Positions 10,871 through 29,162 of a DNA stretch of 64,000 nucleotides are shown here, piece after piece. Source of the stretch: a bacterium GBS-1 (GTDB lineage: Bacteria > Synergistota > GBS-1). The position numbers and the translations under genes are program-made. Within the stretch, counting starts at the first letter, position 1; every line of letters starts with the position of its first letter. The DNA lies in contig LEKQ01000001.1 of the NCBI GenBank assembly GCA_001443005.1, positions 594,542-658,541 on the forward strand, written 5' to 3'. The notes below the pieces were generated by a model. It was not told where the DNA came from. It searched no databases and was given only the letters and a program-made list of their open reading frames with translations.

Positions 10871-11410
10871 TCACCCTTTCTTGAATATATCAAAGGCAGC
10901 CCTTAAGGCTTTTAAGTTTAAATCCCTAGTAGCAGGAGGTACCCTATTAAGCATGGCAGCCTCGAGCGATTCCCTTTTTACTATTCCTGTTAATGAGACC
11001 AAAACCCCCAAAGCCACTATGTTCGCAGATAAAGGCTTACCTGTCTCCCTTATGGATATCTCTGTTATAGGAAGCTCGTATATCTCAACGTCAGAGCGAG
11101 GTTTGACCTCCTTGATATAAAGTGTATCAATGATGATTAATCCTCCCTCTTTGACGCTCTCACCGTATTTATCCAGCGCATCTTGAGTCATAGCAAGTAA
11201 TATATCTGGTCTTTCGATCTCTGGGTAGTTTATCTCCTCATCGCTTATGATGATCTCGGACCTACTTGCACCACCTCTTGCCTCGGGACCATAGGACTGA
11301 TTATGCGTAGCGTTCTTTCCCTCATAAATCACCGCAGCCTCCGCAAGGATAATCCCTGCGAGAACCAGACCTTGACCACCGTAACCGCTTAACACTATCT
11401 CCTTCCTCAT
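10871..11410 (-). CDS. 2-oxoacid:ferredoxin oxidoreductase gamma subunit
   Basis: 179 aa with the SGYGGQGLVLAG block typical of OFOR gamma subunits. It directly abuts the beta-subunit gene (0-nt gap). Confidence 0.88.
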   Translation of the reverse strand: MRKEIVLSGYGGQGLVLAGIILAEAAVIYEGKNATHNQSYGPEARGGASRSEIIISDEEINYPEIERPDILLAMTQDALDKYGESVKEGGLIIIDTLYIKEVKPRSDVEIYELPITEISIRETGKPLSANIVALGVLVSLTGIVKRESLEAAMLNRVPPATRDLNLKALRAAFDIFKKG

Positions 11411-12235: not shown

Positions 12236-13373
12236 GGCTAAACACCTCTTTAATCGCATCAACTATCTCCCAAGGAGATATCATCTTGCCATCAACCCTA
12301 TTAATTCTAACAGCTTTCCTACAAATGCATCTTTCCACCTCTCCTACAAGCTGCCCCATGTTCATCTCAGGCACGACAACAACCTTAGCTCTTTTCGCAT
12401 ACCCCTCTACAACTTCGCCAGGGAAAGGCCAAAGGGTTTGTAACTGCAAAAGCCCAGCTCTTATCCCGCCCTCCCTCAGCATGTTAACTGCATCCTTGGC
12501 AGACCTCGCTGTACACCCATAGGCTACGATAAGCACGTCAGAATCCTCAACCCTATAGGTCTTATAATAAGTTATCTCCTTCCTATAAAACTCTATCTTC
12601 TTGTGAAGTCTCCTTATAAGCTCATTCGCCACCTTATGGTTATATGTTGCTGGGAAGCCCTCCTCATCATGTACATTACTAGTTACGTGATATCTGTACC
12701 CCTTACCGCGATAGGCGAAATCAGGAACACCGTCAGGCCCAGCGGCAAAAGGCTTATATTGCTCAGGCGGCAAGTTAGTAACTCTCCTATTAACTATCCT
12801 TATCCTGCTCGGATCTGGCAAAGTTACCTTCTCCCTTACGTGACCAACCACCGCATCGGAAAGAAGGATCACCGGATTTCTAATGAGCTCAGATATATTA
12901 AAGGCCTCTATAGTTAACTCAAAGGCCTCTTGAACCGTAGCAGGGCATAAGACAACTATAGGATGGTCTCCATGCGTTCCCCACCTCGCCTGCATGACAT
13001 CTCCCTGCGCAGGAAGGGTCGGTAAACCCGTGCTCGGCCCACCCCTTTGCACATCCACTATGACGCAAGGAATGTCAACTATTGTGGCATATCCCAAGTT
13101 CTCCTGCATTAAGGTAAATCCAGGACCACTCGTTGCAGTCATGGCCTTAAAACCAGCCATAGATGCTCCTATAACCGCAGCGATGCTAGCTATCTCATCC
13201 TCCATCTGAATGAATACCCCACCTACCTGAGGCATCCTAAGAGCCATCATCTCGGCTATCTCTGTAGCTGGAGTTATCGGATAACCCGCGAAGAACCTCA
13301 CTCCAGCTAAGATGGCTGCCTCAGCTATAGCCTCATTACCTTGCATGAATCGCACATCCTCCTTAAGGCTCAT
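12228..13373 (-). CDS. 2-oxoacid:ferredoxin oxidoreductase alpha subunit
   Basis: 381 aa with GNEAIAEAAILAGVRFFAGYPITPATEI and the general KorA/PorA layout. It overlaps the delta gene by 4 nt. Confidence 0.88.
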   Translation of the reverse strand: MSLKEDVRFMQGNEAIAEAAILAGVRFFAGYPITPATEIAEMMALRMPQVGGVFIQMEDEIASIAAVIGASMAGFKAMTATSGPGFTLMQENLGYATIVDIPCVIVDVQRGGPSTGLPTLPAQGDVMQARWGTHGDHPIVVLCPATVQEAFELTIEAFNISELIRNPVILLSDAVVGHVREKVTLPDPSRIRIVNRRVTNLPPEQYKPFAAGPDGVPDFAYRGKGYRYHVTSNVHDEEGFPATYNHKVANELIRRLHKKIEFYRKEITYYKTYRVEDSDVLIVAYGCTARSAKDAVNMLREGGIRAGLLQLQTLWPFPGEVVEGYAKRAKVVVVPEMNMGQLVGEVERCICRKAVRINRVDGKMISPWEIVDAIKEVFSHA

Positions 13374-13597
13374 TCCTCTTCCCCCTCCCGCACCTCAACA
13401 GCATAATCAGGACACCTGAGCTCACAGCTTCTACAACCTACACACATCTCCTCGCGCATAACCCTAACCTTACCATCGCTTGTAAACTCAAAAACCTTCT
13501 TAGGGCAAAACTCTACACATATACCACAAGACTTACACCACTTAGTATTCAGAACAACCTTAAACCTCTTAGTCAAGGCAATCACCCCTTCTTTCAA
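13370..13597 (-). CDS. 2-oxoacid:ferredoxin oxidoreductase delta subunit (2x[4Fe-4S] ferredoxin)
   Basis: 75 aa with two CxxCxxCxxxCP motifs, CKSCGICVEFCP and CVGCRSCELRCP. Confidence 0.85.
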   Translation of the reverse strand: MKEGVIALTKRFKVVLNTKWCKSCGICVEFCPKKVFEFTSDGKVRVMREEMCVGCRSCELRCPDYAVEVREGEEE

Positions 13598-13602
13598 AGC
13601 GC

Positions 13603-13803
13603 TTAGCCGCCCGACATGATATATGTAACTACTATCTCGTCACCATCCCTAACTATCCTCGAGCTATACTCCCTCCTGGGCAAGACATCCCTATTCAAGA
13701 ACACAGTCATATAAGAGATATCATAACCAAGCTTCTCTAAAAGCTCCCCCACGGTCATCTCACCTTCCAAATTAACTTCCCTATTATTCACCTTAACAAG
13801 CAT
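13603..13803 (-). CDS. ThiS/MoaD-family ubiquitin-like sulfur-carrier protein ending in Gly-Gly
   Basis: MLVKVNNREVNLEG...GDEIVVTYIMSGG* has the size, N-terminal pattern and C-terminal GG typical of ThiS/MoaD. The start is ambiguous: TTG at 13821, ATG at 13812 or ATG at 13803. I prefer 13803. It ends 5 nt upstream of the OFOR delta gene. Confidence 0.65.
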   Translation of the reverse strand: MLVKVNNREVNLEGEMTVGELLEKLGYDISYMTVFLNRDVLPRREYSSRIVRDGDEIVVTYIMSGG

Positions 13804-13825
13804 CTCCTCCATTTCCTCCAAATAA

Positions 13826-13863
13826 ATTATACTCAGTATACTGTCTACTTCCTAAATCATCAA
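13826..13863 (-). promoter_or_regulatory. candidate internal sigma-70 promoter upstream of the ThiS-like/OFOR genes
   Basis: Read on the minus strand: TTGATG (13863-13858), a 17-nt spacer, then TATACT (13840-13835), followed by a second TATAAT (13831-13826) and GGAGG. It lies in the 75-nt gap after dehydratase no. 2. Confidence 0.35.
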
Positions 13864-13896
13864 GGCCACCCTTAAAAGGTATCTTTGGGTTTTTCT

Positions 13897-15552
13897 TCAC
13901 TCCAGGGATCTTCTAACCGCTCCCTTTGACGCGCTCTCAACGAAAAGCCTATAATATCTCAGGTAGCTGTTTTCAGGTATAAAGGAGCGATTGACCTCCT
14001 GTACCTCTCCTTTTCTCCTTTTATATTCTTCCTCTGATATCAATAGGTCTACCCTCTTCCTCCCGAGGTCTATCCTTATAACATCACCATCCCTAACTAT
14101 GGAGAGCGGTCCTCCTGCCGCCGCCTCAGGGGAAACATAAGCTATAGAGATGCCGTAAGAAGCCCCGCTAAGCCTGCCATCGGTTATGAGTGCAACGTTC
14201 TTATATCTATTTATTATCTCAACACACCTATGAAGCTCCCTCATGCCCGGACCTCCACAAGGCCCCTCGTATCTTATGATGATAACCTCCCCATCCTTAA
14301 GGTCATTGCTTGATGCATACTCCATAAACTCATCCTCCGAGTTAAATACCCTAGCTACCCCTTCAAAGGGATCCTTCAAAACGTCCACCAGCGCAGACAC
14401 CTTAAGCAGGGCTCCATCAGGAGCAAGGTTTCCTCTCAAGACTTTTATAGCTCCACCCTTAGCTATGGGGTCGGAAACCGATCTTATGATTGACTTCAAA
14501 GGCCTGAATCCCTCACTCTTCCCAATGATATCCCTCCAGGTATCGTTAAGGACCGTCTTTCTATCAAGGTTAAGATAATCCTTTAGTTCTCTTATCAATG
14601 CAACCACTCCGCCAGAAAAATACAGATCTATAACGGTATTCTCGTCGCTATTGGGAGTAACTTGAGCAATCAGGGGAACACTCTCGCTTATCCTCTCAAA
14701 ATCCTCCATGCTTATCTCTATCCTTAGCTCATGAGCTATGGCAGGAATGTGAAGAACAGCGTTTAGAGAACCACCTATAGCCATAACTACAGCTATTGCA
14801 TCCTCAAAAGCTTCCCTCGTCATTATCGCCGAAGGTTTCAAGCCCATCTCTATTAAGCGAACAGCTTGCTCTCCGGTTAATCTAGCTAAGTTATATCTCT
14901 GACTTGTTCCCGCTGGAGTTAAAGCTGACCCTGGCAATCCCACACCCAAAACCTCAGCTACTATACACATGGTATTTGCCGTTCCCAAAAATGGGCAAAC
15001 ACCTGGACCAGGATAATACCTCTCCGTGATGTCAAGCAGCTCATCCTCGGAGACCTTACCCTCAAGAAAGCTCCTTCTCGCCATCTTGGACTCCTTAGGC
15101 TTGATATAGTTGCACATCGGTCCTGCTCCCAACCAAATAGAGGGAAGGTCTATCCTAGCCATAGCCATAAGCATACCAGGGACGATCTTGTCGCAGGAGG
15201 AGAGAAAAACCAAACCATCGAATATATCGTGTCCCTTCACCATAGATTCTATCGAATCAGCGATCAACTCCCTGCTTGGGAGGCTATATTTCATGCCCTT
15301 ATGCCCCTGAGCTATACCATCGCATATAGCTATCGTGTTGAACTCGATTGGAACTCCACCAGCCTTGTAAACCCCTTCTTTTACCTTCTCGGCCAGGTCT
15401 CTTAAAGGGACATGCCCAGGGACTATTTCGTTCCAAGAGTTGACTATACCTACTATGGGCTTGTTAAGATCCGCTCGGGAAAAACCACAAGAAATTAGAT
15501 GCCCCTTTATAAGCTGTCTAACGTAGTTCGGAAAAGCACTCAATCGGTTCAT
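13897..15552 (-). CDS. IlvD/Edd-family Fe-S dehydratase no. 2 (sugar-acid dehydratase candidate)
   Basis: 551 aa with [44 protein letters not shown] and TDGRLSGAS blocks. Confidence 0.88.
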   Translation of the reverse strand: MNRLSAFPNYVRQLIKGHLISCGFSRADLNKPIVGIVNSWNEIVPGHVPLRDLAEKVKEGVYKAGGVPIEFNTIAICDGIAQGHKGMKYSLPSRELIADSIESMVKGHDIFDGLVFLSSCDKIVPGMLMAMARIDLPSIWLGAGPMCNYIKPKESKMARRSFLEGKVSEDELLDITERYYPGPGVCPFLGTANTMCIVAEVLGVGLPGSALTPAGTSQRYNLARLTGEQAVRLIEMGLKPSAIMTREAFEDAIAVVMAIGGSLNAVLHIPAIAHELRIEISMEDFERISESVPLIAQVTPNSDENTVIDLYFSGGVVALIRELKDYLNLDRKTVLNDTWRDIIGKSEGFRPLKSIIRSVSDPIAKGGAIKVLRGNLAPDGALLKVSALVDVLKDPFEGVARVFNSEDEFMEYASSNDLKDGEVIIIRYEGPCGGPGMRELHRCVEIINRYKNVALITDGRLSGASYGISIAYVSPEAAAGGPLSIVRDGDVIRIDLGRKRVDLLISEEEYKRRKGEVQEVNRSFIPENSYLRYYRLFVESASKGAVRRSLE

Positions 15553-15588
15553 TCAAGATCAACTCCCTCCATGAAGCGAAAATGGCTT

Positions 15589-16479
15589 TCATAGCAAACC
15601 AAGCCTCCTTAAGCCCTCTTTTATCTTTTCCCTTACCTCTTCGCTCGCTGGTCTGAAGGGTTCTCTCGGATACATCTTTATCCCGCGTAGGTTAACCATG
15701 GTATAAGCTCCTACGGTAGTGGTATTAGCGAGCCTCATAAGGTCTCTAACGGCCATCACCCTATTGTGAACCTCTATCACCTTATCCTTAGGGGCACCGC
15801 TCATCACCACATCATAAAGCTCCTTACAAAGCTCTGGAAAAGCGTTACCCAACCCTGGAATAAAGGCTTTGATGCCCAAAGAGGACGCAGGAACAAACAG
15901 AGCCTCGGTTCCTAAAACCACATCGAAGCCTTCTTTTTCTACCTTTCTCTTGAAATCCGATAGGACCATCAAATCGAAGCTACTATCCTTAACACCATGC
16001 ACACCTATATCCGCCAACCTCTTAAGCAAGCCCACGCTAACGGCATACCCGACAGTTTTGGGATTGTTATAAACATAAACAGGCACATTAACTGCATCAA
16101 CGATTCTTTTGAAATAAAATAAGACATCCTCCTCGGCATGATGATAGTAGAAAGGAGGAACCGCTGAAACAGCATCAGCACCTATCTCCTCAGCGTGTTT
16201 AGCGAGCTCAACAGCATCCCTCGTGCTTATGCTTCCCACATGAACAATAACCGGGACCCTCCCCCCGACCTCCTTCACAATTATCTCCGCAACCCTCTTT
16301 CTCTCCTCGAGGCTAAGCAAAGGTCCGCAGCCATAGGTCCCAAGGATGAAAAGGCCATCCACCGTCCCTAAAAGGAAGCTCGTAAAATCCCTCAAAGCTC
16401 CCTCATCTATATCGCCGTTTGCATCGAAGGGAACGATCATCGGCGGAATTACCCCTCTCAACTGGGTGATACCCATCAA
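15589..16479 (-). CDS. DapA/NAL-superfamily class I aldolase or dehydratase (KD(P)G-aldolase-like)
   Basis: 296 aa. It has LGTYGCGPLLSLEERK where DapA has GTTGE; as I recall, archaeal KD(P)G aldolases read GTTGLGP.LS at this position. The Schiff-base Lys lies in HGVKDSS. Confidence 0.8.
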   Translation of the reverse strand: MMGITQLRGVIPPMIVPFDANGDIDEGALRDFTSFLLGTVDGLFILGTYGCGPLLSLEERKRVAEIIVKEVGGRVPVIVHVGSISTRDAVELAKHAEEIGADAVSAVPPFYYHHAEEDVLFYFKRIVDAVNVPVYVYNNPKTVGYAVSVGLLKRLADIGVHGVKDSSFDLMVLSDFKRKVEKEGFDVVLGTEALFVPASSLGIKAFIPGLGNAFPELCKELYDVVMSGAPKDKVIEVHNRVMAVRDLMRLANTTTVGAYTMVNLRGIKMYPREPFRPASEEVREKIKEGLRRLGLL

Positions 16480-16498
16480 AACACCCCCTTAAGGATCT

Positions 16499-18028
16499 TC
16501 ATCCCATTGTCTCTTGCAACTCGCTAATCTCCCTAAACTCATCCTGCAGCTTATGATAAATCTTCCAATATATCCTATATAACCTCTCGTATAAAACCCT
16601 TAGCCGCTCATCAGGCTCGATGCAATCGACTAACTGGACGGCCTTGGGAAGGATATCCTCATAGCTTTTTATATACCCAACGCCCCTCATGGCCATAACC
16701 GCTGCACCGAAAGAGGAAGCCTCCTCCATATTAACCCTAACTATTGATCTCCCAAGAACGCTTGATAGAACACCCGCCCAAACTTTAGACCTCATCAAAC
16801 CACCGGTTCCCCTAAGCTCTGTAGGGACGCTAACGACCTCTGAGACCGCCTCATATATACTCCTCATTCGAAAGGCTACACCCTCGATTATCGCCCTCGC
16901 TATATGTCTTCTATCATGGTGAAGCGCAAGACCGAACAAAATTCCTCTAACGTCAGCGTTCCAATAGGGGCCTCTCTCGCCGGTTAAAAAGGGCAAAAGC
17001 AAAAGCCCTCCTGCTCCTGGTTTGACCTCCTGAACCCATCTTTCGGCCTCCCTATAGAGGTCTAGGCCCATTTCTTTCAAATCCTCGTAAAAGCCATCGA
17101 TATACCAAGCCATCACAAGCCCAGCGTTGTTTATGGCGCACCCCACAAGCCAGGTATCCTCATCTAATATGTAACACCACGTTCTTCTTTTCTTATCAGT
17201 CATGGGACCCTTAACGGCCATTCTAACCGCACCGCTCGTTCCGATCATTATAGCCATCTTCCCTTCCCCGATTGAGTTGGAACCTAAAGACGATAAAGCA
17301 CCATCTCCAGCACCTATAACGATGGGAGTTCCCTCCCTTAAACTGGTTATGAGGCTAACTTCCTTAGAGACTTTTCCAACAACGGTTGAGGGGTAAACGG
17401 TCTCGCTCATTTTACCAATACTTATATCGAGGCTATCAAATATGGATTCCTCCCATTTTCTCTTATATATGTTAAGTAAACCGCTACCAGAGGCCACAGA
17501 GATATCGATGGCGAAGACCTTCGCTAAATTCCAAAGAACATACTCCTTTATGGTCATTATCCTATAAGCTTCATCAAGAGCTTGAGGGGTTTCATGCTTA
17601 AACCATATGAGCTTGGCGAGAGGATAGTTCACATGGAGGGGGCAACCTGTAATATCGTAAAGGTAATCAAACCTCTCTCGATAGCTCTTAAGCAGATCGT
17701 TAGACCTATTATCCCCCCAGATAATGAGATTGGTCTTTTTCCTCACATCAGAATCCACTAACATTATGCTGTGAAAAACGCTACTTAAACCTATGGCACC
17801 TATCTCATACTCACCGTTGGCAAGCTCCAAGGATTCCTTTATCGAGCTATATACAGCGGAGACAACCTCGTCAGGATCCTGCTCCACCCAACCAGGCTTA
17901 GGTTGAATAATCCTATAGTTTCTCTTAGCCATCGATATTAATCTTCCATCGCCATCGAAGATACAACATCTCGCCCCGGTTGTTCCTATATCAATACCTA
18001 TGAAAGCCGTCTTAGCCATCATAAACAC
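16499..18028 (-). CDS. FGGY-family carbohydrate kinase (gluconokinase/xylulokinase-like)
   Basis: 509 aa with IGIDIGTTGARC, GWVEQDP and VIGAGDGALSS blocks. The true start may be the fourth Met. Confidence 0.85.
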   Translation of the reverse strand: MFMMAKTAFIGIDIGTTGARCCIFDGDGRLISMAKRNYRIIQPKPGWVEQDPDEVVSAVYSSIKESLELANGEYEIGAIGLSSVFHSIMLVDSDVRKKTNLIIWGDNRSNDLLKSYRERFDYLYDITGCPLHVNYPLAKLIWFKHETPQALDEAYRIMTIKEYVLWNLAKVFAIDISVASGSGLLNIYKRKWEESIFDSLDISIGKMSETVYPSTVVGKVSKEVSLITSLREGTPIVIGAGDGALSSLGSNSIGEGKMAIMIGTSGAVRMAVKGPMTDKKRRTWCYILDEDTWLVGCAINNAGLVMAWYIDGFYEDLKEMGLDLYREAERWVQEVKPGAGGLLLLPFLTGERGPYWNADVRGILFGLALHHDRRHIARAIIEGVAFRMRSIYEAVSEVVSVPTELRGTGGLMRSKVWAGVLSSVLGRSIVRVNMEEASSFGAAVMAMRGVGYIKSYEDILPKAVQLVDCIEPDERLRVLYERLYRIYWKIYHKLQDEFREISELQETMG

Positions 18029-18043: not shown

Positions 18044-18802
18044 TCAAACTGCCGTCCAGCCTCCGTCCACGAAGATTATCTGACCTGTGATATAAGAAGC
18101 CTCCTTAGAGGCCAAAAAAACCGCAACCCCTTTAAGGTCCTCCAAAGATCCAAACCTACCCAAGGGTATCCTTTTTATCATGCTTTCAAGCCTTTCTCTA
18201 TCGCTGAAGACCGCCTCGGTCATCCTGGTCTTGTACCATCCTGGCGCAATAGCGTTCACCCTTATGCCATACGCCCCCCACTCCTTAGCGAGCGCCTTAG
18301 TTAATGAGCCAACACCGCCCTTTGAAGCAGCATAGGCACATATGTTAGGAACGGTCACCTCAACCACGGTCAAGGAGCAAACGTTGATTATTGAGGGGGA
18401 ATCTGACCTCCTCAGTAATCTAAAAGCCTCCCTACACACGTAAAAGGTCCCAAAGAGATTAACCTCGATTATCTCCCTAAAATCATCGATTGGAAACTCC
18501 TCAGCGGGATACCTCCTATTGATGCCTGCAGCGTTCACAACGACATCAAGCCTACCATAGTTTCTCTCAATATTATCCATTATATTCTTCACTTCATCGT
18601 ATTTCGAGACATCGCATCTTAAGCCCGAAGCTTTAACACCATAGCCTTGACTTATCCTTAGGGCAGTCTCCTTTGCCTCCTCTATGGTCCTGCTAACTAT
18701 CAATACATCGCTTCCCGCCTCGGCGAGCCCCTCAGCGAGAGCCATACCTAATCCCCTTGACCCGCCAGTTACAAGAGAGAGCCTTCCTCTAAGGTTAAAC
18801 AT
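18044..18802 (-). CDS. SDR-family oxidoreductase (gluconate 5-dehydrogenase / KduD-like)
   Basis: 252 aa with TGGSRGLG and the catalytic YAASKGG motif. The N-terminus closely resembles what I recall of the Thermotoga gluconate 5-dehydrogenase. Confidence 0.82.
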   Translation of the reverse strand: MFNLRGRLSLVTGGSRGLGMALAEGLAEAGSDVLIVSRTIEEAKETALRISQGYGVKASGLRCDVSKYDEVKNIMDNIERNYGRLDVVVNAAGINRRYPAEEFPIDDFREIIEVNLFGTFYVCREAFRLLRRSDSPSIINVCSLTVVEVTVPNICAYAASKGGVGSLTKALAKEWGAYGIRVNAIAPGWYKTRMTEAVFSDRERLESMIKRIPLGRFGSLEDLKGVAVFLASKEASYITGQIIFVDGGWTAV

Positions 18803-20276
18803 TTGCCCCCGTTATCCTCCTTCTCCCAAGAATCATTAGCACTATCAATACCCAAAGAATTATACAAATAGGCCTAGTAAAGAAAGGAGTTATGCTTTCA
18901 TTTAACGTCAAAGCCCTTCTTAGGTTCTCATCAGCCATCCTACCCAAAATCAACCCCAGGGTAAATGGAGCGAGAGGATAGCCGTGATTTCTCAGTACGT
19001 AACCTACTAAACCGAAAAGCAAGGTTACGTAGACGTCAAAAATGGAGTGATTCACAGCGTAGGCACCTATAACGCAGAGAGTTATTACTATAGGCATTAA
19101 GATGTCCTTCTTCACCAGCAACACCTTTATAAGTACGTTGCTTATAAGAAGCCCAAAGATAAGAAGCATAAAGTTAGCCAAAACCTGCATAGCAACGTAA
19201 TCATAGAAAAATTGCGGGGACTCAATGAAGATAAGCGGACCTGGCCTTATCCCGTGCAACAATATGCCTCCCAATAAAACGGCAGCAGCTCCGCTACCAG
19301 GTATGCCAAGAGCTATCATCGGAATCGAAGCTCCACCTATGCATGCGTTATTCGCTACCTCACAAGCGATAACCCCTTCCTTGCTCCCCTTACCTATCAT
19401 CTCCCTTTCCACACCGAGATTTTTGACAGCACCATAGCTTACCCAAGCGGCCACATCTTCACCAACGCCAGGAATAACACCGATCAGAATACCTATTATC
19501 GCAGACCTTATGGTCGTCTTCCAGTATCTAAAAACCTCTACTAAGGGAATACTAACCCTGAGCTTCTTAGGATCAACCACTAACTCCCCCTGTTTCGGCT
19601 CCCTCATCACGCAAAAAACCTCGGTTAAACCGAAAAGGCCTATCAAGGCAGGTATCAGAGATATGCCACTCATCAAATTTAGGCTGCCGAAGGTGAACCT
19701 TGGATAGGTGGTCATGTTATCCATACCTATCATAGCGGTCATAAGACCGAGAAAGCCCGTTATCCACCCCTTTAATTGCAACTCACCCATAGACAAGCTT
19801 CCACATATCATCACTCCCATTATGGTCAAAACGAAGAACTCCCAGGAACCAAACTTCAGGGCTATCTTAGCAAGCAAAGGGGTAGAAACAGCCAAGGCTA
19901 AGACGCCTATTAAACCACCCCAGAAGGAAGCTAAACGAGCAAGCCCTAAAGCTTCCCCAGCCATCCCATTCTTAGCTAATTCGTATCCATCTATAGCGGT
20001 AGCTGCAGCTGAAGGGGTACCAGGGATGTTAAGCAAAATGGCACTATTGGATCCTCCATATATACCACCGCAATAGAGAGCTACGAGCATCGGTATGGCA
20101 TATCGAGGGTCCAGACCATAGGTTATACCACTTAAGAGGGCTATACCCATCGTAGCTGTAAGACCAGGTAAAGCCCCGATTATTACCCCAAGGACAGAAG
20201 ATAGTGACATCAAAGATAGCAGCTTTAAGTCAAGAAGACCAACGAAACCATCAAAAAGCCTTAATAAGCTTTCCAC
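18795..20276 (-). CDS. tctA: tripartite tricarboxylate transporter (TTT) large permease TctA, copy 1
   Basis: 493-aa polytopic membrane protein with GALPGLTATMGIALL and GIPGSGAAAVLLG blocks. Its 3' end overlaps the SDR start by 8 nt. Confidence 0.88.
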   Translation of the reverse strand: MESLLRLFDGFVGLLDLKLLSLMSLSSVLGVIIGALPGLTATMGIALLSGITYGLDPRYAIPMLVALYCGGIYGGSNSAILLNIPGTPSAAATAIDGYELAKNGMAGEALGLARLASFWGGLIGVLALAVSTPLLAKIALKFGSWEFFVLTIMGVMICGSLSMGELQLKGWITGFLGLMTAMIGMDNMTTYPRFTFGSLNLMSGISLIPALIGLFGLTEVFCVMREPKQGELVVDPKKLRVSIPLVEVFRYWKTTIRSAIIGILIGVIPGVGEDVAAWVSYGAVKNLGVEREMIGKGSKEGVIACEVANNACIGGASIPMIALGIPGSGAAAVLLGGILLHGIRPGPLIFIESPQFFYDYVAMQVLANFMLLIFGLLISNVLIKVLLVKKDILMPIVITLCVIGAYAVNHSIFDVYVTLLFGLVGYVLRNHGYPLAPFTLGLILGRMADENLRRALTLNESITPFFTRPICIILWVLIVLMILGRRRITGANV

Positions 20277-20300
20277 CTCGATCCCTCCTCAAAGCAGAAC

Positions 20301-20783
20301 TTAGGGCAACCTCACTCCAAGTAAATGTCCAAATGAGTACATCAAGCTCAAACTCACCAAAAGAGCGATCCCGATCGCGACGTGTAGCTTGACACTTTTA
20401 AAGTAAAGATAGGACCCAACTAGATAGAGAAAAGTCGCCAAAGTATAGGGTATCTTCCCCAAAAGAGCAACATAGGCGACCGTTAAAGCTATAAAGACGA
20501 CGAGCCTTTGTGTCTTGAGTCTCTCCTCCCTGCTTCCCTCATTTCTCCCCTTTGACTCCGAGAGGCTCCAACCTTTAAGGTTTCTTTTAAAGATAAACAA
20601 GAGGTAAAACATAAGCGCAGCTGAAAGAACCATAAGAATTGCCGATAAAACTGCGGGGGTAAGACCTGGGGAGTCATGAGGGTCTCCAGTAGGCATCTTT
20701 AGGGATTCAAACAAGCCATAAGCACCGATCAGGAAAACGAAAAGGGCAATCGCAAACTCCCACCACCATCTCTTCCTATCCAT
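20301..20783 (-). CDS. tctB: TTT small membrane subunit TctB, copy 1
   Basis: 160 aa with about 4 hydrophobic helices, positioned between tctC and tctA. Confidence 0.7.
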   Translation of the reverse strand: MDRKRWWWEFAIALFVFLIGAYGLFESLKMPTGDPHDSPGLTPAVLSAILMVLSAALMFYLLFIFKRNLKGWSLSESKGRNEGSREERLKTQRLVVFIALTVAYVALLGKIPYTLATFLYLVGSYLYFKSVKLHVAIGIALLVSLSLMYSFGHLLGVRLP

Positions 20784-20813
20784 CCTGAACTAAATCGCCT
20801 CCCCCTTAAAACA

Positions 20814-20845
20814 GTGCATGGCAGGAGGAAGAACCTGCCATGCAC
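20814..20845 (-). terminator. intercistronic GC-rich stem-loop between tctC1 and tctB1 (partial terminator or mRNA stabiliser)
   Basis: A perfect 12-bp stem, GTGCATGGCAGG / CCTGCCATGCAC, with an 8-nt loop, 24 nt after the tctC1 stop. On the minus strand it is followed by TGTTTTAAG. Confidence 0.5.
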
Positions 20846-20869
20846 CCATCTCTATCTAAGGGTCCAAAC

Positions 20870-21877
20870 TTACTCCGGCTTAGGAATCTTGAAATCCTCA
20901 GGAGATTTCTTCGCAAGCTTCAACTCATGTAAGAGCCAGCTAACCAAAGATGTCTCTCTCTTAGCGTACTCCTCAGACTTCTGCCTATCATAGCCAAGAT
21001 AAACCATGGCCTGCTTCTGTACGAACTCCTTGAACTTAGGAGACTGAACGGCCTTAGCGTATGCCTTATCTATCGCATCTACAACCTCTTGAGGAACATC
21101 CCTAGGAACTGCTATGCCCCACCAACCACCGAAAGGTAGATATTTCTTAATATCAGGAGCCCACTTCGCCACAGTGGGAACCTTACCTACGCCCTCTATC
21201 TCAATATCCTCGTCATTGAACGTCGCAAGGATCCTAAGCTGGCCACCCTTTATCAAATCTATGGCCTCCATTAAGCCTGGAATTCCCGCTTTCGTCTCCC
21301 CTGCCACAGCCGCGGCAGCAGCCGCACGACCGCTGGGATAAACCACTATCTTAAAGTCCCCTCCAACAGATTTCTTAAGCATCTCCAAAGCTATATGCCA
21401 CCCGTTGGCTATACCAGAGTTAGCAAGGGTTAAGTCCTTCCCCATCTCCTTCATAGCCTTAATGAAATCATCCATGGTCTTTATGGGAGAATCGGGCTTA
21501 ACGCATATGGTCGCTACACCAGCAGCAGCGATCCACATATGAAAGTCCTTATAAGAGAAGGGACCAAGGTCCATCACCTGATACATCCTTATGTTATCTG
21601 AGAGTCCTAACCAAATATAACCATCATGAGGCTGACCCATGACGTAAGCTGTCGCAACAGCTCCAGTGGCCCCAGGCATATTTATGACATTAATAGGAAC
21701 CCCTAGGATCTGCTGCATCTCTGCCGCCAATGCTCTATTGACCTGGTCTGTTGCTCCACCCGCACCGAACTGAACTATAACGGTTATAGGTCTCGTTGGA
21801 TAGGCAGCCCATCCCATACCTGCGAAGACACCCACGAACAAGCCCAACACCGCCAACATAACAAGAGCCTTCTTCAT
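20870..21877 (-). CDS. tctC: TTT periplasmic solute-binding protein TctC (Bug family), copy 1
   Basis: 335 aa with a signal peptide (MKKALVMLAVLGLFVGVFAGMGWA), the FGAGGATD and MPGATGAVA blocks, and the tctCBA gene order. Confidence 0.85.
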   Translation of the reverse strand: MKKALVMLAVLGLFVGVFAGMGWAAYPTRPITVIVQFGAGGATDQVNRALAAEMQQILGVPINVINMPGATGAVATAYVMGQPHDGYIWLGLSDNIRMYQVMDLGPFSYKDFHMWIAAAGVATICVKPDSPIKTMDDFIKAMKEMGKDLTLANSGIANGWHIALEMLKKSVGGDFKIVVYPSGRAAAAAAVAGETKAGIPGLMEAIDLIKGGQLRILATFNDEDIEIEGVGKVPTVAKWAPDIKKYLPFGGWWGIAVPRDVPQEVVDAIDKAYAKAVQSPKFKEFVQKQAMVYLGYDRQKSEEYAKRETSLVSWLLHELKLAKKSPEDFKIPKPE

Positions 21878-23325: not shown

Positions 23326-24795
23326 TTAGTCCTTTAATTTACGCACCACCTTCCAAATAGATGGTCCTAAAAGGGTTAAAACTATAAGAGAAAACAAGAT
23401 TAAAGATATGGGACGGGTTAGGAAAGGGATAATGCTACCACCTGACTTTATAAGCCCTATACGGAGATTGTCCTCGATCATCCTACCAAGGATTAGAGCT
23501 AAAACCATTGGAGCAAGAGGCATGTTTATTTTCTCCATAACGTAGCCGAGTAAGCCAAACAGCGCCATTAGCCATATATCGAAGACGCTGTTTCTTATGG
23601 CGTAGGAGCCTACCATGGAAAACAGAACCACAGCACTCATAACTACACCTGCTCTAAGGCTAACCAAGCGAGAAAAGGCCTTTATCCCCAGCCACCCAAC
23701 CGGTAAAAGCATTATCTGCACCAGCAGGGCTACAGCGAAAATCTGATATACCAAATCCTTAGATTGAGCGAAGATGAGCGGTCCAGGCTTCAAGCCATAC
23801 ATCAGCATAGCGCCTAGGACTATCGCAGTTATAGAATCGCCAGGTATCCCCAGTGCCAGTGCAGGGATCCAAGTTCCACCTATAGCAGCATTATTCGCAC
23901 TGGTTGGAGCTATAACGCCACGGGGGCTACCGGAACCTATCTCATTACCACTAAGGCTTTTTTCCGCTCCATAGGCAACCCATGCAGCGATGTCCGCCCC
24001 CGCTCCAGGAAGAGCACCTATGAAAGTCCCTATCAAAGAGCTCCTTATTATAATGAACTTATTGCGATACATAAGCTTTAAAGCCTCAAGCACATCCAAC
24101 TTCCCATTGATTTTAACGCTTGGTAAGTCCAAGCTCTCCCTAAAGGACAATCTCTTCAATACCTCGGAAATTCCAAAAAGTCCTATCATAGCTGGGATAA
24201 AGCTAACACCATCCATCAGCTCCGTGATCCCAAAGGTAAACCTGGGATATCCCGTGGTGACATCTATACCTATGGTAGATATGAGAAGCCCAAACAAGGC
24301 TGAAAGAAGCCCCTTGATGGTATTACCTCTACTTAAAACGGCAGCCATGCTTAAACCAAAGACCCCCAACCAGAAATACTCGAAGTGCGTGAACTTCAAG
24401 GCTACCTCAGCTAACGGGGGAGCAGTGAAGATCAATATCAAAACCCCTATCAATCCTCCAAGAGCAGAACAGAAGAGATCCAAAGTTAAGGCTAAAGCTC
24501 CTTTACCCTTCTTATTCATCTCAAAGCCATCTAAAACCGCTGCCCCAGAGGCTGGCGTACCCGGAATCCTTAAGAAGGTCGCGGGAATATCGCCTGCAAA
24601 TATGGCGGTGAAGGAAACACCTATAACCATAGCCAAACCCGTTAGGGGCTCCATGTAATAGGTCAATGGTATTATGAGAGCTACGGCCATCGTAGCCGTA
24701 AGGCCAGGCATAGCGCCCACGAAAACGCCAAAGGCCATTGAAAGCAAAAGCGGAAAAAGAACCTTTAAGGAAAGGATGGATAAAAGATAAGACAT
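23326..24795 (-). CDS. tctA: TTT large permease TctA, copy 2
   Basis: 489 aa, a paralogue of 18795-20276, with GAMPGLTATMAVALI and GIPGDSITAIVLG blocks. Confidence 0.88.
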   Translation of the reverse strand: MSYLLSILSLKVLFPLLLSMAFGVFVGAMPGLTATMAVALIIPLTYYMEPLTGLAMVIGVSFTAIFAGDIPATFLRIPGTPASGAAVLDGFEMNKKGKGALALTLDLFCSALGGLIGVLILIFTAPPLAEVALKFTHFEYFWLGVFGLSMAAVLSRGNTIKGLLSALFGLLISTIGIDVTTGYPRFTFGITELMDGVSFIPAMIGLFGISEVLKRLSFRESLDLPSVKINGKLDVLEALKLMYRNKFIIIRSSLIGTFIGALPGAGADIAAWVAYGAEKSLSGNEIGSGSPRGVIAPTSANNAAIGGTWIPALALGIPGDSITAIVLGAMLMYGLKPGPLIFAQSKDLVYQIFAVALLVQIMLLPVGWLGIKAFSRLVSLRAGVVMSAVVLFSMVGSYAIRNSVFDIWLMALFGLLGYVMEKINMPLAPMVLALILGRMIEDNLRIGLIKSGGSIIPFLTRPISLILFSLIVLTLLGPSIWKVVRKLKD

Positions 24796-24802
24796 CTACA
24801 CT

Positions 24803-25294
24803 CTACCCCCTTAAGAGTGAAAATATAACTCCCTCAGGTAAGGGTAGCTTAAATATAACCTTGAAAATCCAATGGATTAACAAAGCCAAGACTACAGAAT
24901 AAACTAGAGATGAAAACCACCTAACTCTCATAAATCGCATTAGGAAAACTCCCAAGAGCGTTATACCAATCACGCTTCCGAAAATCTTCAGAACCGGGTA
25001 AAAGAGAAACCCCACACCTATGATAATTACGAAGCTCAAGCTTTTATATAAGCTGACGCCTTTAAATAGCGATGATCTCAATTCCTCCCTCGCTTTAAAT
25101 AGAGAGGTCAAACCAGATACAAAAAAGTAAAAACCAAAGATCAAGATCAAAAAAGCTAAGAGATCCGGGAAAAAGCTCGGTCCAGGCAACTTTTCCCCTC
25201 TTACCGTAAACTTCGGGAAAAACCTGGAATGGTAAAAAACGAAGCCTGATAAAGCGAAACAGCTCAAACTCAATATAAGGTCACTCCACCCCAT
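24803..25294 (-). CDS. tctB: TTT small membrane subunit TctB, copy 2
   Basis: 163 aa with 4 hydrophobic helices, positioned between tctC2 and tctA2. Confidence 0.7.
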   Translation of the reverse strand: MGWSDLILSLSCFALSGFVFYHSRFFPKFTVRGEKLPGPSFFPDLLAFLILIFGFYFFVSGLTSLFKAREELRSSLFKGVSLYKSLSFVIIIGVGFLFYPVLKIFGSVIGITLLGVFLMRFMRVRWFSSLVYSVVLALLIHWIFKVIFKLPLPEGVIFSLLRG

Positions 25295-25319
25295 TTAGCC
25301 ACAATCCCCCTTTAAAGGC

Positions 25320-25349
25320 GGGGCAAGCTCGTGGGAACGAGCTTGCCCC
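25320..25349 (-). terminator. intercistronic GC-rich stem-loop between tctC2 and tctB2
   Basis: A perfect 12-bp stem, GGGGCAAGCTCG / CGAGCTTGCCCC, with a 6-nt loop, 13 nt after the tctC2 stop and 25 nt before the tctB2 ATG. Confidence 0.5.
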
Positions 25350-25362
25350 AAAGAGAATACCT

Positions 25363-26337
25363 TTACTTCTTAAGATATCCGCCTAGCTCGAGAACCGTCT
25401 TCCAAGCTTTATCCTGCTCCTCAACGAATTTCCTGAACTCCTCTCCCCTTCTTACCTTTATACCAAAGCCATTGGTTTCCATGAACTTCTTGAAAGCTTC
25501 AGAGTTAGCTATCTCAATAATGGCATCCTCGAGCTTCTTCTTTATCTCAGCAGGGGTTCCTTTAGGAACACCCACACCCCTCCACGTACCAGCGCTCCAG
25601 TTAATACCGAGCTCCTTTAAGGTCGGTACATCTGGGAATGCAGGAAGCCTCTCATCGGCCATAACAGCGAGAGCTCGAGCCTGACCGCTCTTTATATAAG
25701 GAGCGGCTTCCGCCAACGAACAGGTAACCACGTGGACATGCCCACCTAAAAGCTCGGTCAAAGCTTGAGCAGCGCCCGTGGTAGACGGAATCCACTTAAC
25801 GGAATCCACAGGCAAACCAGCAGCGTGAAGCATACCTATCCTAGCTAAATCCCATATCCCACCCGCTGCGACGCCGGAGAAAAGAAGCTTACCTGGATTA
25901 GCCTTTATATCGTCCAGTAGCTCCTTGAGATTCTTCCATGGGGCATCGGCCTTGACCGTTACTCCTGCAGCATCCTCGTTAACCTGAGCTATATAGTCGA
26001 AAGCCTCATAGGTTAGGTCCGTGAGGCCCATCCAGTGCATTGTGGCTAACTCCAATGTCACGATGGTTATGGTGTATCCGTCTGGGGGTGCATAAGCACC
26101 AGCGGCGTGCCCCACCGCTCCACCGCCACCCGTTTTGTTAACCACAGTGAAGGGCTGACCAAACTTCTTAGAAAGCTCATCTGCCAAAAATCGAGCAAGC
26201 CTGTCGGTGCCCCCACCAGCACCCCAAGGACAGATAACCGTAACCGCCTTCTCTGGATAGGCCGCCCACGCGCTTAAGGTAAAGACCCACGTAAACCCCA
26301 TAACCGCCAAAACTACCACCCATAAAAGCTTCTTCAT
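25363..26337 (-). CDS. tctC: TTT periplasmic solute-binding protein TctC, copy 2
   Basis: 324 aa with a signal peptide ending SAWA and the WGAGGGTD and KTGGGGAVG blocks. Confidence 0.85.
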   Translation of the reverse strand: MKKLLWVVVLAVMGFTWVFTLSAWAAYPEKAVTVICPWGAGGGTDRLARFLADELSKKFGQPFTVVNKTGGGGAVGHAAGAYAPPDGYTITIVTLELATMHWMGLTDLTYEAFDYIAQVNEDAAGVTVKADAPWKNLKELLDDIKANPGKLLFSGVAAGGIWDLARIGMLHAAGLPVDSVKWIPSTTGAAQALTELLGGHVHVVTCSLAEAAPYIKSGQARALAVMADERLPAFPDVPTLKELGINWSAGTWRGVGVPKGTPAEIKKKLEDAIIEIANSEAFKKFMETNGFGIKVRRGEEFRKFVEEQDKAWKTVLELGGYLKK

Positions 26338-26523: not shown

Positions 26524-26997
26524 TTAAAAGCACCTTTTTCTGAGATTAAACCTTCTTAAAATGGGCAGAAACATGCCTCCAACGAGAGCTAACGCCCCAA
26601 GAGCGCCGGGCCTGGAGGAGATTTCACAACCGCCGCACCACCAGTCAAAGTCAACCCTTATGCTACGAGGCCCCCACCATGTAGAATGACCGTATTCATC
26701 CTCAACCTTAACGCATACATCGTACCACCCCTCGTACCACACCCTATACCATAGAGTGTCGCTCCACTCCACCTCAACGCCATTCACATACCATGTATAG
26801 TAAATGTAATCACCATCAGGATCATAGGCTTCAACGCGCCCCTTTATGATCGCATATTCATCACACCAATCGTATTCGTAATAATCCACATCCAACCAAA
26901 CGTTCGTTATTATAGGAGGCGAGTTCTGCCCCAAAGCATATCCAGATATACATAAGAGCAAGACAAGGGAAACAAGCGATATCTTAAGCCCCTTCAA
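26524..26997 (-). CDS. small secreted Trp/Tyr-rich PKD/Ig-like-domain protein with a C-terminal hydrophobic anchor or sorting-signal-like tail
   Basis: 157 aa. It has a signal peptide (MKGLKISLVSLVLLLCISGYALG/Q) and an NSPPIITNV...AYDPDGDYIYYTWYVNG pattern like PKD/cadherin-like Ig domains. It contains 11 Trp and 14 Tyr. The tail is CGGCEISSRPGALGALALVGGMFLPILRRFNLRKRCF. The TTG start lies in a TTGA overlap with the upstream stop, 9 nt behind GGGAGG. Confidence 0.6.
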   Translation of the reverse strand: MKGLKISLVSLVLLLCISGYALGQNSPPIITNVWLDVDYYEYDWCDEYAIIKGRVEAYDPDGDYIYYTWYVNGVEVEWSDTLWYRVWYEGWYDVCVKVEDEYGHSTWWGPRSIRVDFDWWCGGCEISSRPGALGALALVGGMFLPILRRFNLRKRCF

Positions 26998-28232
26998 ATG
27001 AAACTTCCTCCCTTAGCGCGTTCCATCAAATCAAGGAGAACTTCAACCACCTTTTGAGCAAACTCAGGATCATTTATGTTGTTATCGAGCTCGTAAACTG
27101 GTATCCCAGGTCTAAGATTAGCCTTTATCGAATCGAAGCAAGCCCTATCAGCCTCAGGATCCCAGAAGGCTTGACCAGGACTGTCAAGCATGGAAACACC
27201 CTTTAGCGGTATAAGCACGGCCACCGGCCCCTTGCTTTCGTTCGCCGCCCTAGCTATCCACTCCCCTATGGCTTTGTTTTCTTCAACGTTCGTCCTAACC
27301 AAGGTGACATTAGGATTCCACTCGTATATCTTTCTGCCCCTATACTTCTCCGGAACCGTATCTTTCGCCCAGAAATTGATCATATCGACACAACCCGGAA
27401 CTAAAACGGCAGGGATACCTCTTCTTGCAGCAGCAAAGAGCCTATCCTTCCCCGCCGATAGAACCCCTCCACCTATCTCATCAGCTAACTCCGTAGTCGT
27501 TATATCAGCCACAGCTGAAACCAAGCCCTGATCAATGAGCATCTCCATGGTTCTCCCACCGGTCCCAGTAGCGTGAAACACCAGTATCTCAAAGCGATCG
27601 CCCAAAAGCTCTTTAACCTTCTCGACGCACGGTGTCGTGTTCCCAAACATGCTTATAACTATAACTGGCTTCTCAGGCTCCTTAAGCATCTCCTCATAGG
27701 CACCATGCTCAAGCATCCCCGCGAGCGCCCCCACGGCGTTCTTATAAATCGCCCTGCTAATCCTATTTAAGCCAGCCACATCAACTATTGAGGGAAACAT
27801 CACTATATCCTTAATCCCAACATATCGAGATACATCTCCACCAGCAACCGTAGACACCATCACCTTAGGAATACCTATGGGCAAAGCTTGCATGGCCGTT
27901 GTGGCTATTATGGTCCCAGCGCTTCCTCCCATACCAAGTATGCCATGAAGATTCCCTTCATCATATAACCTCCTAACTACCTCCTTAAGCCCCTTGGTCA
28001 TCGTATCCATCGCTAAGCTCTTATCCTTTTTCGCCTGGAGCTCCTCTATGCTCACTCCCCCCGCCTTTGCCACCTCTGCCCTCGTTATATCTGGTTCGAA
28101 GAAGGGCTTCCCCATCACACCAAAATCAACCACAATAACCTCAAAACCAGAGCTCTTGAGCAGATCCCTAACGTAGGCAAAATCCTGCCCTTTGGTATCT
28201 AAGGCACCGACTAAAACAACCTTCTTAGTCAT
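26994..28232 (-). CDS. UPF0261 / Tm-1-like ATP-binding-domain protein
   Basis: 412 aa. The N-terminus KKVVLVGALDTKGQDFAYVRD and general layout match my recollection of the UPF0261 family, which is homologous to the N-terminal half of tomato Tm-1. Confidence 0.7.
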   Translation of the reverse strand: MTKKVVLVGALDTKGQDFAYVRDLLKSSGFEVIVVDFGVMGKPFFEPDITRAEVAKAGGVSIEELQAKKDKSLAMDTMTKGLKEVVRRLYDEGNLHGILGMGGSAGTIIATTAMQALPIGIPKVMVSTVAGGDVSRYVGIKDIVMFPSIVDVAGLNRISRAIYKNAVGALAGMLEHGAYEEMLKEPEKPVIVISMFGNTTPCVEKVKELLGDRFEILVFHATGTGGRTMEMLIDQGLVSAVADITTTELADEIGGGVLSAGKDRLFAAARRGIPAVLVPGCVDMINFWAKDTVPEKYRGRKIYEWNPNVTLVRTNVEENKAIGEWIARAANESKGPVAVLIPLKGVSMLDSPGQAFWDPEADRACFDSIKANLRPGIPVYELDNNINDPEFAQKVVEVLLDLMERAKGGSFI

Positions 28233-28247
28233 ACTATCCTCCCTCCC

Positions 28248-29087
28248 CTAACGAGCAAGCCTCAGCGACTTAAAGGCCTCAACCTGCGCTTTTATCGCCC
28301 TCTCTGTAGGCAGGCGCTCGATGCTTGAAGCGCCAAAGAACCCCACGACACCAGGCATCATCGCAAGAGCCTTACCCACATTCTCAGGCTCATCGAAAGG
28401 CCCTCCATGGCATATCACCAGTATATCCTTTCTAACTCTCTTAGCAGCTTCAGCGATAGACATCACCTTCTCAACGGCTTGCTCCAAGGTCATGGCCACA
28501 CCAGCTCCTATCGTACCACCGGTAGTTAAACCAACATGAGCAACGATAACATCAGCACCAGCCTTAACCATCTCAACGGCCTGGTCCTCATCAAACACAT
28601 AGGGTGTGGTAAACATATCAAGCTCATGAGCTATCCTTATCATCTCGATCTCCTTATCATACCCCATACCTGTGGCCTCAAGGTTAGCCCTGAAGTTACC
28701 GTCAATTAGACCAACAGTTGGGAAGTTCTGAACGCCGGAGAAACCCATTTCCTTAAGCTCCCTTAAGAAAACGGGCATAAGCCTAAAGGGATCTGTGCCG
28801 CAAACGCCAGCCAAAACAGGGGTGTTTTTCACAACCGGCAAGACCTCCCTCGCCATCTCAACAACTATAGCGTTAGCATCACCATAGGGCATAAGACCCG
28901 CTAGGGAACCTCTCCCACCCATCCTGAATCGACCAGAATTATAGATAACTATCAGATCTATTCCACCAGCCTCAGCCATCTTCGCGGATATCCCTGTTCC
29001 AGCTCCACCACCCACTATGGGCCTTCCAGCCTCGATCTGAGCGTGAAGGCGAGCTAATATTTCTTCCCTCGTAAAACCGATCTTCAT
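28248..29087 (-). CDS. phosphoenolpyruvate-hydrolase-like TIM-barrel protein (Tm-1 C-terminal-half homologue)
   Basis: Blocks [36 protein letters not shown] and [12 protein letters not shown]. The start ATG at 29087 is 6 nt behind GGGAGGTG; the ORF-track GTG at 29096 lies inside that Shine-Dalgarno sequence. Confidence 0.7.
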
Positions 29088-29162
29088 TAGCAACACCTCC
29101 CTTAAAAAAATCTTTTCTGACTATATTATAAAGCTTAGACAATCTTTATATCAACTTAAAAG

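Follow-up and report, generated by a model that had tools for sequence, protein, structure and literature searches.

A conserved aromatic-rich PKD mini-protein of the hot-spring bacterium GBS-1 with a C-terminal tail resembling Cys-type sorting signals

A mini-protein of 157 amino acids (aa) is encoded on the minus strand, at 26524..26997, of a 64,000-nucleotide stretch of the genome of bacterium GBS-1 (GenBank assembly GCA_001443005.1, contig LEKQ01000001.1, positions 594,542 to 658,541), hereafter called the window. The mini-protein is the product of a real, conserved gene that lies within an operon. It consists of a signal peptide, a single PKD-type domain with an unusually large share of aromatic residues, and a tail composed of a Cys motif, a hydrophobic helix and a basic end. 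It represents a new, very narrow family on a known fold, equipped with a variant of a known C-terminal signal type; the tail resembles a known Cys-type sorting signal yet does not qualify as one. The mini-protein is very probably exported and anchored in the membrane by its C-terminus.

Gene identity and conservation

The start codon TTG (26997..26995) shares the tetranucleotide TTGA with the stop codon TGA (26996..26994) of the preceding gene, a member of the UPF0261 family, and follows the Shine-Dalgarno sequence GGGAGG; the orthologues carry AAAGGAGG and GGGAGG at the equivalent position. The TTG start, the TTGA overlap and the Shine-Dalgarno sequence are kept in all three known variants of the mini-protein. 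The protein contains 11 Trp, 14 Tyr and four WY dipeptides. An original prediction, made from the letters of the window, had given the coordinates, the overlap, the spacing of GGGAGG, the residue counts and the C-terminal sequence, all of them exactly. Its count of six Cys (C16, C45, C95, C121, C124, C156) is likewise correct, but their conservation is partial: only C45, C121 and C124 are invariant among the three variants, and C16 and C156 occur in the window variant alone.

A search of 5.8 billion proteins returned three clusters, which make up the whole family, and all three variants stem from one thermophilic lineage. The window's variant of the mini-protein recurs identically in six metagenome contigs of up to 208 kb from Great Boiling Spring (77°C), and NCBI, ENA and GEM hold it as well, on a contig of 686.8 kb. 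The orthologues P0002 and P0003 are 56-57% identical to the window mini-protein, and P0003 is the same protein as in the metagenome-assembled genome 'bacterium DJKA70_ANT-KO_bin.39'. Scans of genomes and metagenomes found no variants beyond the known three. Locus L014, with match statistics equal to those of L009, is probably the P0003 variant. Locus L013 (Ga0065718_1002360), a supposed relative with 83% identity, was rejected as an artefact of assembly quality; it derives from the same organism, in an assembly marred by Ns and gene-splitting frameshifts.

Between the variants the proportion of synonymous differences (pS) is saturated at 0.81-0.85, the proportion of nonsynonymous differences (pN) is 0.18-0.29, and all insertions and deletions are in frame. 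Six neighbouring genes are likewise synonymously saturated (pS 0.73-0.83), and among them the mini-protein is the fastest-evolving (58% identity, pN 0.28). Identity differs by region, with 100% for residues 116-124, 68-71% for the core, 29-33% for the signal peptide and 40% for the rest of the tail.

The tiny family, the non-ATG start codon and the fast evolution are what could speak for a chance open reading frame (ORF), or for a decaying piece of a larger PKD surface protein without a function of its own. That reading is effectively refuted by the substitution pattern and the conserved features: pN is far below pS, the indels are in frame, and the start, Shine-Dalgarno sequence, cleavage site, core and tail are all kept despite synonymous saturation. 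The architecture is moreover complete from signal peptide to anchor, and the core is modelled with confidence. Translation, which the original prediction had deduced, is thus borne out by purifying selection and by the conserved coupling signals. A frameshift fusion with UPF0261 was also rejected, as a signal peptide in the middle of an enzyme would make no sense and separate genes are called in every assembly.

Signal peptide and PKD-like domain

The signal peptide was judged by a heuristic check of composition, hydrophobicity and the -3/-1 rule. The n-region carries K2 and K5, the hydrophobicity maximum of a 15-residue Kyte-Doolittle window is 2.45, and the cleavage site has Ala at -3, Gly or Ser at -1 and QN at +1/+2 in all three variants. 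By this heuristic the signal peptide of the original prediction is present and of the signal peptidase I (SPase I) type, cut between ALG and QN, with features common to the three variants. The AlphaFold2 (AF2) model places a helix at residues 2-24. An N-terminal lipoprotein was considered and rejected because C16 is unconserved: it stands in an LLLC context, which is not a lipobox, and has no counterpart in either orthologue.

The domain that follows is acidic (20 Asp/Glu vs six Lys/Arg) and 26% aromatic. Its direct match to PF00801 reaches 11.5 bits (E=0.3), below the gathering cutoff of 23.5. A profile of the mini-protein family matched 843 proteins at E<1e-3 among 1.84 billion representatives, with up to 20 repeats each, and all 843 matches cover mini-protein positions about 25-118; PKD_4 was found in eight of eight sampled matches and PKD also in five of the eight. 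Comparison of the mini-protein with the related PKD segments by hhalign gave 99.3% (E=5e-20). The AF2 model, built on a 4-sequence alignment, shows seven strands with a predicted local distance difference test score (pLDDT) of 91-95 in the core, and the top Foldseek matches in PDB include the PKD domains of PrtV (target template modelling score 0.76), Epp and ColG/ColH, at E 1e-3 to 1e-2. The canonical pattern A-x-DPDG-D...Y-x-W...G-x-Y-x-V-x-L/V-x-V-x-D is retained. Profile, hhalign, AF2 and PDB matches agree on the single PKD/Ig-like domain of the original prediction, and the structure prediction that it had recommended for the aromatic-rich domain yields a seven-strand PKD-type sandwich with a confident core.

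Exactly two Cys occur in the core of each variant. They are C45 and C95 in the window mini-protein and, in the orthologues, a C-x4-C pair within the loop preceding C45. This suggests that a core disulfide has been re-paired between the variants, which would in turn imply an oxidising location outside the cytoplasm.

Aromatic residues

Aromatic residues make up 24-26% of the mature domain in each of the three variants, vs 10.6±2.8% (maximum 17.5%) in 340 related PKD segments. Trp accounts for 7.0% of the mini-protein vs 0.94±0.72% (maximum 3.4%) in the other 52 genes of the window, and Trp plus Tyr for 15.9% vs 4.1±1.4% (maximum 8.2%). The aromatic content that the original prediction called extreme therefore exceeds that of every one of these genes and segments.

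By alignment the aromatic gains are W34, Y48, Y66, Y70, W78, W83, W87, Y88, W91 and W107, at positions that are 65-86% polar in the PKD relatives. Because the gains fall on normally polar positions, three of the WY dipeptides (W83-Y84, W87-Y88 and W91-Y92) have arisen. The Tyr of W83-Y84 and of W91-Y92 occupies an ancestral core position, and the Trp before it was newly gained on the surface; both residues of W87-Y88 were gained, at positions polar in the relatives; and the roles are reversed in the fourth dipeptide, W69-Y70. Strand alternation, read from the alignment positions, would have the gained aromatics face outward on both sheets. From its composition the mini-protein may bind carbohydrates or aromatic compounds, as had been supposed. 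With aromatic residues on surface positions that are normally polar, its PKD domain is a possible thermostable binding scaffold.

C-terminal tail

The tail runs in the order DFDWWCGG(G)C, Ser-rich linker, hydrophobic helix, RR, and the tripartite layout of motif, helix and basic cluster described in the original prediction is present and conserved in all three variants. The Cys motif sits 26-37 residues from the end of the protein. The linker comprises 7-10 residues across the variants, Lys/Arg and Glu among them, and residues 121-131 have a pLDDT <50. The hydrophobic segment is 15-16 residues long with invariant G, L, L, G and P145-x-L, and is modelled as helices at 134-141 and 144-147. The last eight residues of the window variant, FNLRKRCF, including C156, are specific to it, and the orthologues end in ...LRRG; this C-terminus was altered because a block of intervening genes begins exactly after the LRR codons of the mini-protein gene. 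The relatives' RRG codons (AGGAGAGG; AGG AGA GG, L009 10400-10432 and L008 1240-1266) double as the Shine-Dalgarno sequence of the following comB-like gene, and the basic cluster is therefore also constrained at the nucleotide level.

Full-length proteins and isolated tails were searched against NCBIfam (June 2026), reporting at E<=10. MYXO-CTERM (TIGR03901.2; cutoff 20) gave 10.9, 15.6 and 11.7 bits for the full-length window protein, P0002 and P0003, and 14.3, 19.7 and 13.6 bits for their isolated tails. JDVT-CTERM (NF033191; cutoff 27) gave 17 bits for the P0003 tail. MYXO-CTERM was the best or only match for three of the four tails tested and JDVT-CTERM for the fourth. PEP-CTERM, GlyGly-CTERM, PGF-CTERM, CGP-CTERM and Synerg-CTERM (TIGR04564) had no match at this threshold, and no PEP, terminal GG, PGF or CGP motif abuts the helix in the mini-protein tail. 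The original prediction had likened the tail to signals of exosortase, archaeosortase or rhombosortase type, naming PGF-, CGP- and MYXO-CTERM. What stands of this comparison is the likeness to Cys-type classes, all of which score below their cutoffs; PGF- and CGP-CTERM did not match. The MYXO-CTERM match was lost when the second or both Cys were changed to Ser, when the motif was deleted and when the helix was shuffled; changing the first Cys alone raised it to 20.6 bits. The JDVT-CTERM match likewise requires the second Cys. As the match depends on the second Cys, C124 corresponds to the invariant Cys of the Cys-type signals.

Further proteins with this tail were sought in about 110 kb, comprising the window, its flanks and the loci of the relatives, with a hidden Markov model of the tail run over ORFs of at least 50 aa and, in the window only, a regular expression over ORFs of at least 60 aa. 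No second protein with this tail was found there, which answers for part of the genome the genome-wide check proposed in the original prediction. A tail-only search of the 5.8-billion collection with a 41-49 aa alignment returned two word-sharing candidates, neither of which scored, and so carries no weight against the existence of further clients. Pfam annotation of the window ±10 kb contains no CPBP protein (PF02517), exosortase, rhombosortase, sortase or type II secretion system (T2SS), so that the earlier statement that no sorting enzyme lies in the window extends to 10 kb past each end; nor does a sorting-enzyme gene stand beside the mini-protein gene in any of three genomic contexts. This result counts against a dedicated enzyme encoded adjacently; a housekeeping sorting enzyme is not expected near the genes of its clients. 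All three solute-binding proteins of the window have cleavable signal peptides of SPase I, non-lipoprotein type, which hint at a periplasm-like compartment.

Interpretation

The tail is read here as a plain bitopic anchor, a reading held with about even confidence. Beyond the Cys motif the tail diverges about as much as the signal peptide (40% vs 29-33% identity) and therefore fits an anchor of which only the composition matters. Several observations weigh against this reading. Conservation within the protein peaks at residues 116-124, DFDWWCGG(G)C, the orthologues stop one residue past RR, the NCBIfam matches of the tail are to Cys-type sorting signals only, and the MYXO-CTERM match disappears with the second Cys, the motif or the helix. 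The conserved Cys motif, the RR ending and the Cys-dependent matches together suggest a role for the tail beyond passive anchoring.

An alternative is that the tail works as a sorting signal of Cys type, peculiar to this lineage and related to MYXO-, JDVT- and Synerg-CTERM. After export C124 (perhaps also C121) would be lipidated, and a CPBP/Rce1-type protease encoded elsewhere in the genome would subsequently cut off the helix and RR. A lipid-anchored PKD domain would then be displayed on the cell surface, possibly via T2SS. We consider this a real though doubtful possibility. The layout is tripartite in all variants, the invariant Cys pair has the spacing CGGC or CGGGC, and MYXO-CTERM, the best or only match in most cases, itself often has two nearby Cys. 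The odd features of the tail are known elsewhere, a Pro in the Synerg-CTERM helix and charge plus Pro after the Cys in JDVT-CTERM, and lineage-specific forms are said by the authors of TIGR03901 to escape the general model; the hint of a periplasm-like compartment also fits. The score of every natural tail, including the 17 bits for JDVT-CTERM, nevertheless lies below its curated cutoff, and neither another such tail nor a candidate enzyme or T2SS was seen in the sequence covered by the searches above, although the JDVT-CTERM enzyme gene is nearly always adjacent to its client. The hydrophilic spacer of 7-10 residues with Lys/Arg and Glu also has no parallel in the known Cys-type signals. Two invariant Cys separated by two or three Gly, in a probably extracytoplasmic place, could alternatively form a redox-active or metal-binding CxxC-type site, the protein being a small periplasmic thiol-disulfide or metal factor. 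This is very unlikely because catalytic or metal sites seldom vary in spacing as these variants do (CxxC to CxxxC), and the motif falls within the low-confidence, presumably disordered linker; in addition, the fold is a PKD sandwich rather than thioredoxin-like, and no redox or metal family was matched.

Under the preferred reading, a plain anchor, the following course of coupling, export, membrane insertion and binding may be proposed. A single mRNA would carry the PEP_hydrolase-like, UPF0261 (MarK/Tm-1-type) and mini-protein genes, with ribosomes re-initiating at the TTG within TTGA. The mini-protein would be exported by Sec and cut by signal peptidase I after A21-L22-G23, and its acidic PKD-like sandwich (aa 24-118) would fold outside the membrane. 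It would be tethered to the cytoplasmic membrane by the Ser-rich stalk and by a helix of 16 residues that is followed by RR in the cytoplasm. The extra Trp and Tyr on both outer faces of the sandwich may act as a sticky module for binding or self-association, with a polysaccharide, an aromatic polymer or a protein as putative partners. The invariant CGG(G)C pair by the membrane may serve as a structural or modified element of the stalk, and the tail need not be removed.

A bolder and improbable proposal is that the tail, as a 'WWCGGC-CTERM', constitutes a fifth, new Cys-type signal with its own CPBP-type sortase, and that the surface-exposed mini-PKD captures plant-derived aromatics or polysaccharide while being wired by its operon to a MarK-type kinase, a TIM-barrel protein and a phosphatase. 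The mini-protein would in that case be an extracellular 'antenna', expressed together with the cytoplasmic enzymes that deal with its ligand. Were the tail a true sorting signal of any kind, Cys-type CPBP-dependent sorting, for which four signal types have been described and an enzyme was experimentally confirmed only in 2025, would reach a new thermophilic lineage, and the mini-protein would offer a compact natural substrate (about 130 residues) whose well-folded domain could serve as a reporter. As a plain anchor, the tail would make it an ordinary lineage-specific membrane protein. It would be notable only with further clients and a cognate protease, or with an aromatic surface that binds substrates connected with the neighbouring MarK-type enzymes. 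The UPF0261 family received its first catalytic assignment, as an aromatic kinase, in 2025, and the presence of a mini-PKD in the operon provides a hypothesis on the substrates of the enzymes.

Genome context

The positions of the features are summarized in Table 1.

Table 1. Features of the mini-protein gene and of its operon in the window
Feature	Position	Strand	Basis or remark
Promoter-like site TTGATA-18-TATAAT, 11/12	29125..29154	-	Consensus pattern match only
PEP_hydrolase-like TIM-barrel gene, first of the operon	28248..29096	-	PF09370, E=7e-129
UPF0261 (Tm-1/MarK-like ATP-binding) gene	26994..28232	-	PF06792 and PF23189
Shine-Dalgarno GGGAGG	27007..27012	-	Within UPF0261 coding sequence, 9 nt 5' of TTG
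Stop/start overlap TTGA, translational coupling signal	26994..26997	-	Kept in L007/L009 and L008
Mini-protein ORF	26524..26997	-	157 aa; homologue search and alignment
Predicted signal peptide, aa 1-23 (MKGLK, hydrophobic core, A21-L22-G23 then Q24)	26929..26997	-	Kyte-Doolittle, -3/-1 rule
PKD-like beta-sandwich core, aa 24-118	26644..26928	-	Profile search, AF2, Foldseek, hhalign
Invariant motif W119-W120-C121-G-G-C124	26626..26643	-	CGGGC in orthologues
Ser-rich linker, aa 125-131 (EISSRPG), with charged residues	26605..26625	-	Alignment
Hydrophobic helix, aa 132-147 (ALGALALVGGMFLPIL), invariant P145	26557..26604	-	Kyte-Doolittle maximum 2.2
Basic C-terminus, R148 and R149 invariant, then FNLRKRCF and stop codon	26524..26556	-	Alignment

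The promoter-like site is followed by the PEP_hydrolase-like gene, the UPF0261 gene and the mini-protein gene, in this order. The Joint Genome Institute places the start of the PEP_hydrolase-like gene at 29087, giving 279 aa. The protein is 97% identical between the window and L009 7864-8703 (pS 0.75, pN 0.027) and is under much stronger constraint than UvrD, CoaE or UPF0261 nearby. The UPF0261 protein matches tomato Tm-1 (E=4e-83) and MarK (9MPY, E=1.5e-73) in PDB and is a close relative of both; with MarK, an aromatic kinase, the UPF0261 family gained its first reported catalytic activity (PMC12624787). By alignment offset, the UPF0261 protein has a natural Lys (D12-T13-K14) at the ATP-contact position that was mutated in MarK (E16K) for activation.

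A comB-like phosphatase gene (PF04029) begins 2-3 nt 3' of the mini-protein gene in both orthologues and lies about 26 kb downstream of it in the window organism. The gene of the secreted mini-protein thus sits inside an operon of four genes whose other products are cytoplasmic, an arrangement that persists across synonymous saturation. At least 10 kb of gene order around the gene is conserved in its single lineage, and with a single lineage and synteny of the whole neighbourhood, the coupling is not independent evidence of a functional link. The coupling to cytoplasmic enzymes that the original prediction found odd is accordingly real and conserved, but it is weak evidence that the proteins act together.

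The block separating the mini-protein gene from the comB-like gene extends over 344-26523 on the minus strand (compare L009 10426-11179 and L008 1261-1464). It contains two TctCBA sets, an iron-containing alcohol dehydrogenase (Fe-ADH), SDR, an FGGY kinase, two ILVD/EDD dehydratases, a 2-oxoacid:ferredoxin oxidoreductase, succinyl-CoA ligase, AOR, a UxaA-like protein, Ldh_2 and LarA; besides the transporters, its genes are thus of sugar-acid and oxo-acid type. The paralogous TctC-TctB-TctA sets, for tripartite tricarboxylate transporters, are located at 18795-21877 and 23326-26337 (minus strand), about 1.5 kb apart, with the iron-containing alcohol dehydrogenase gene between them. The 186-nt gap 3' of the mini-protein gene contains no terminator-like site or structured RNA (fold z-score -0.03), and Rfam identified no RNA genes in the window.

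After the comB-like gene, L009 carries CRISPR-associated genes (11133-16843), including ORFs for a Cas1-like protein (15863-16843) and a primase/polymerase-like protein (14080-15861); none occur at the corresponding place in the window. Window positions 37000-64000 and L018 1-10000, past the end of the window, closely resemble a Bacillus-type gene order, with phoH, 7TM-HD, ybeY, cdd, era, recO, glyQ and glyS, where a CNNM-family gene stands in the place of dgkA. The Bacillus-like region continues with a PPDK regulator, dnaG and rpoD, and also includes glmU, prs, L25, pth and mfd.

Comparison with known systems

The mini-protein has the same seven-strand sandwich as PrtV PKD1 (4L9D), Epp PKD1 (6AEM) and the PKD domains of ColG/ColH, and it shares this sandwich and the DPDG...YxW...GxYxV pattern with the PKD_4/PKD repeats of large surface proteins. 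Unlike those repeat proteins, it is a single stand-alone domain that carries a signal peptide and a C-terminal anchor of its own; all other matches among the best 150 are at least 299 aa long. It also differs from the PKD relatives in its aromatic content, in a Tyr/Trp-rich insertion at residues 38-44 and in G53, which replaces a core Phe of the relatives.

MYXO-CTERM tails are processed by the myxosortase MrtX, an intramembrane protease of the CPBP/Rce1 family (bioRxiv 10.1101/2023.06.07.544157; PMC11980579). The mini-protein tail shares with them a Cys motif at the extreme C-terminus, a hydrophobic helix and a terminal Arg cluster, as well as two nearby Cys and small, Ser-rich residues after the Cys. 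The helix region of MYXO-CTERM as described (TIGR03901) is without charged residues or Pro, whereas the mini-protein has the invariant P145 in its helix and charged Lys/Arg and Glu in its linker. MYXO-CTERM is common to between several and dozens of otherwise unrelated proteins per genome (3-73 in known species), is confined to Myxococcota and Bradymonadales, and goes together with a cognate myxosortase (PF02517/NF040914) and T2SS. The mini-protein belongs to an uncultured hot-spring bacterium with no sign of Myxococcota or Bradymonadales, and neither other clients nor a myxosortase were seen in the approximately 110 kb examined.

Like JDVT-CTERM, the partner of MrtJ (NF033191, NF033192), the tail has a Cys motif and a charged or Pro element between the Cys and a Leu-rich helix, and JDVT-CTERM typically has one client per genome. 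JDVT-CTERM differs in its single Cys with a near-invariant DP nine residues later, where the mini-protein has two Cys and no DP. The MrtJ gene adjoins the client gene in 16 of the 17 neighbourhoods where MrtJ was found; the mini-protein gene instead adjoins UPF0261 and tctC in the window, or UPF0261 and the comB-like gene in L008 and L009. The invariant Pro in a Leu-rich helix, the Ser/Gly-rich surroundings of the Cys and the RR end are shared with Synerg-CTERM/MrtS, in which one Cys abuts the helix and the Ser/Gly cluster precedes the Cys; in the mini-protein two Cys are present, and 7-10 residues separate them from the helix. The succession of motif, hydrophilic spacer, helix and basic end recalls the LPXTG-type sortase signals, but the mini-protein has neither an LPXTG-like motif nor a family match, and no sortase was found in the sequence examined. 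The tail is thus a mosaic of features found separately in four known Cys-type classes and a member of none.

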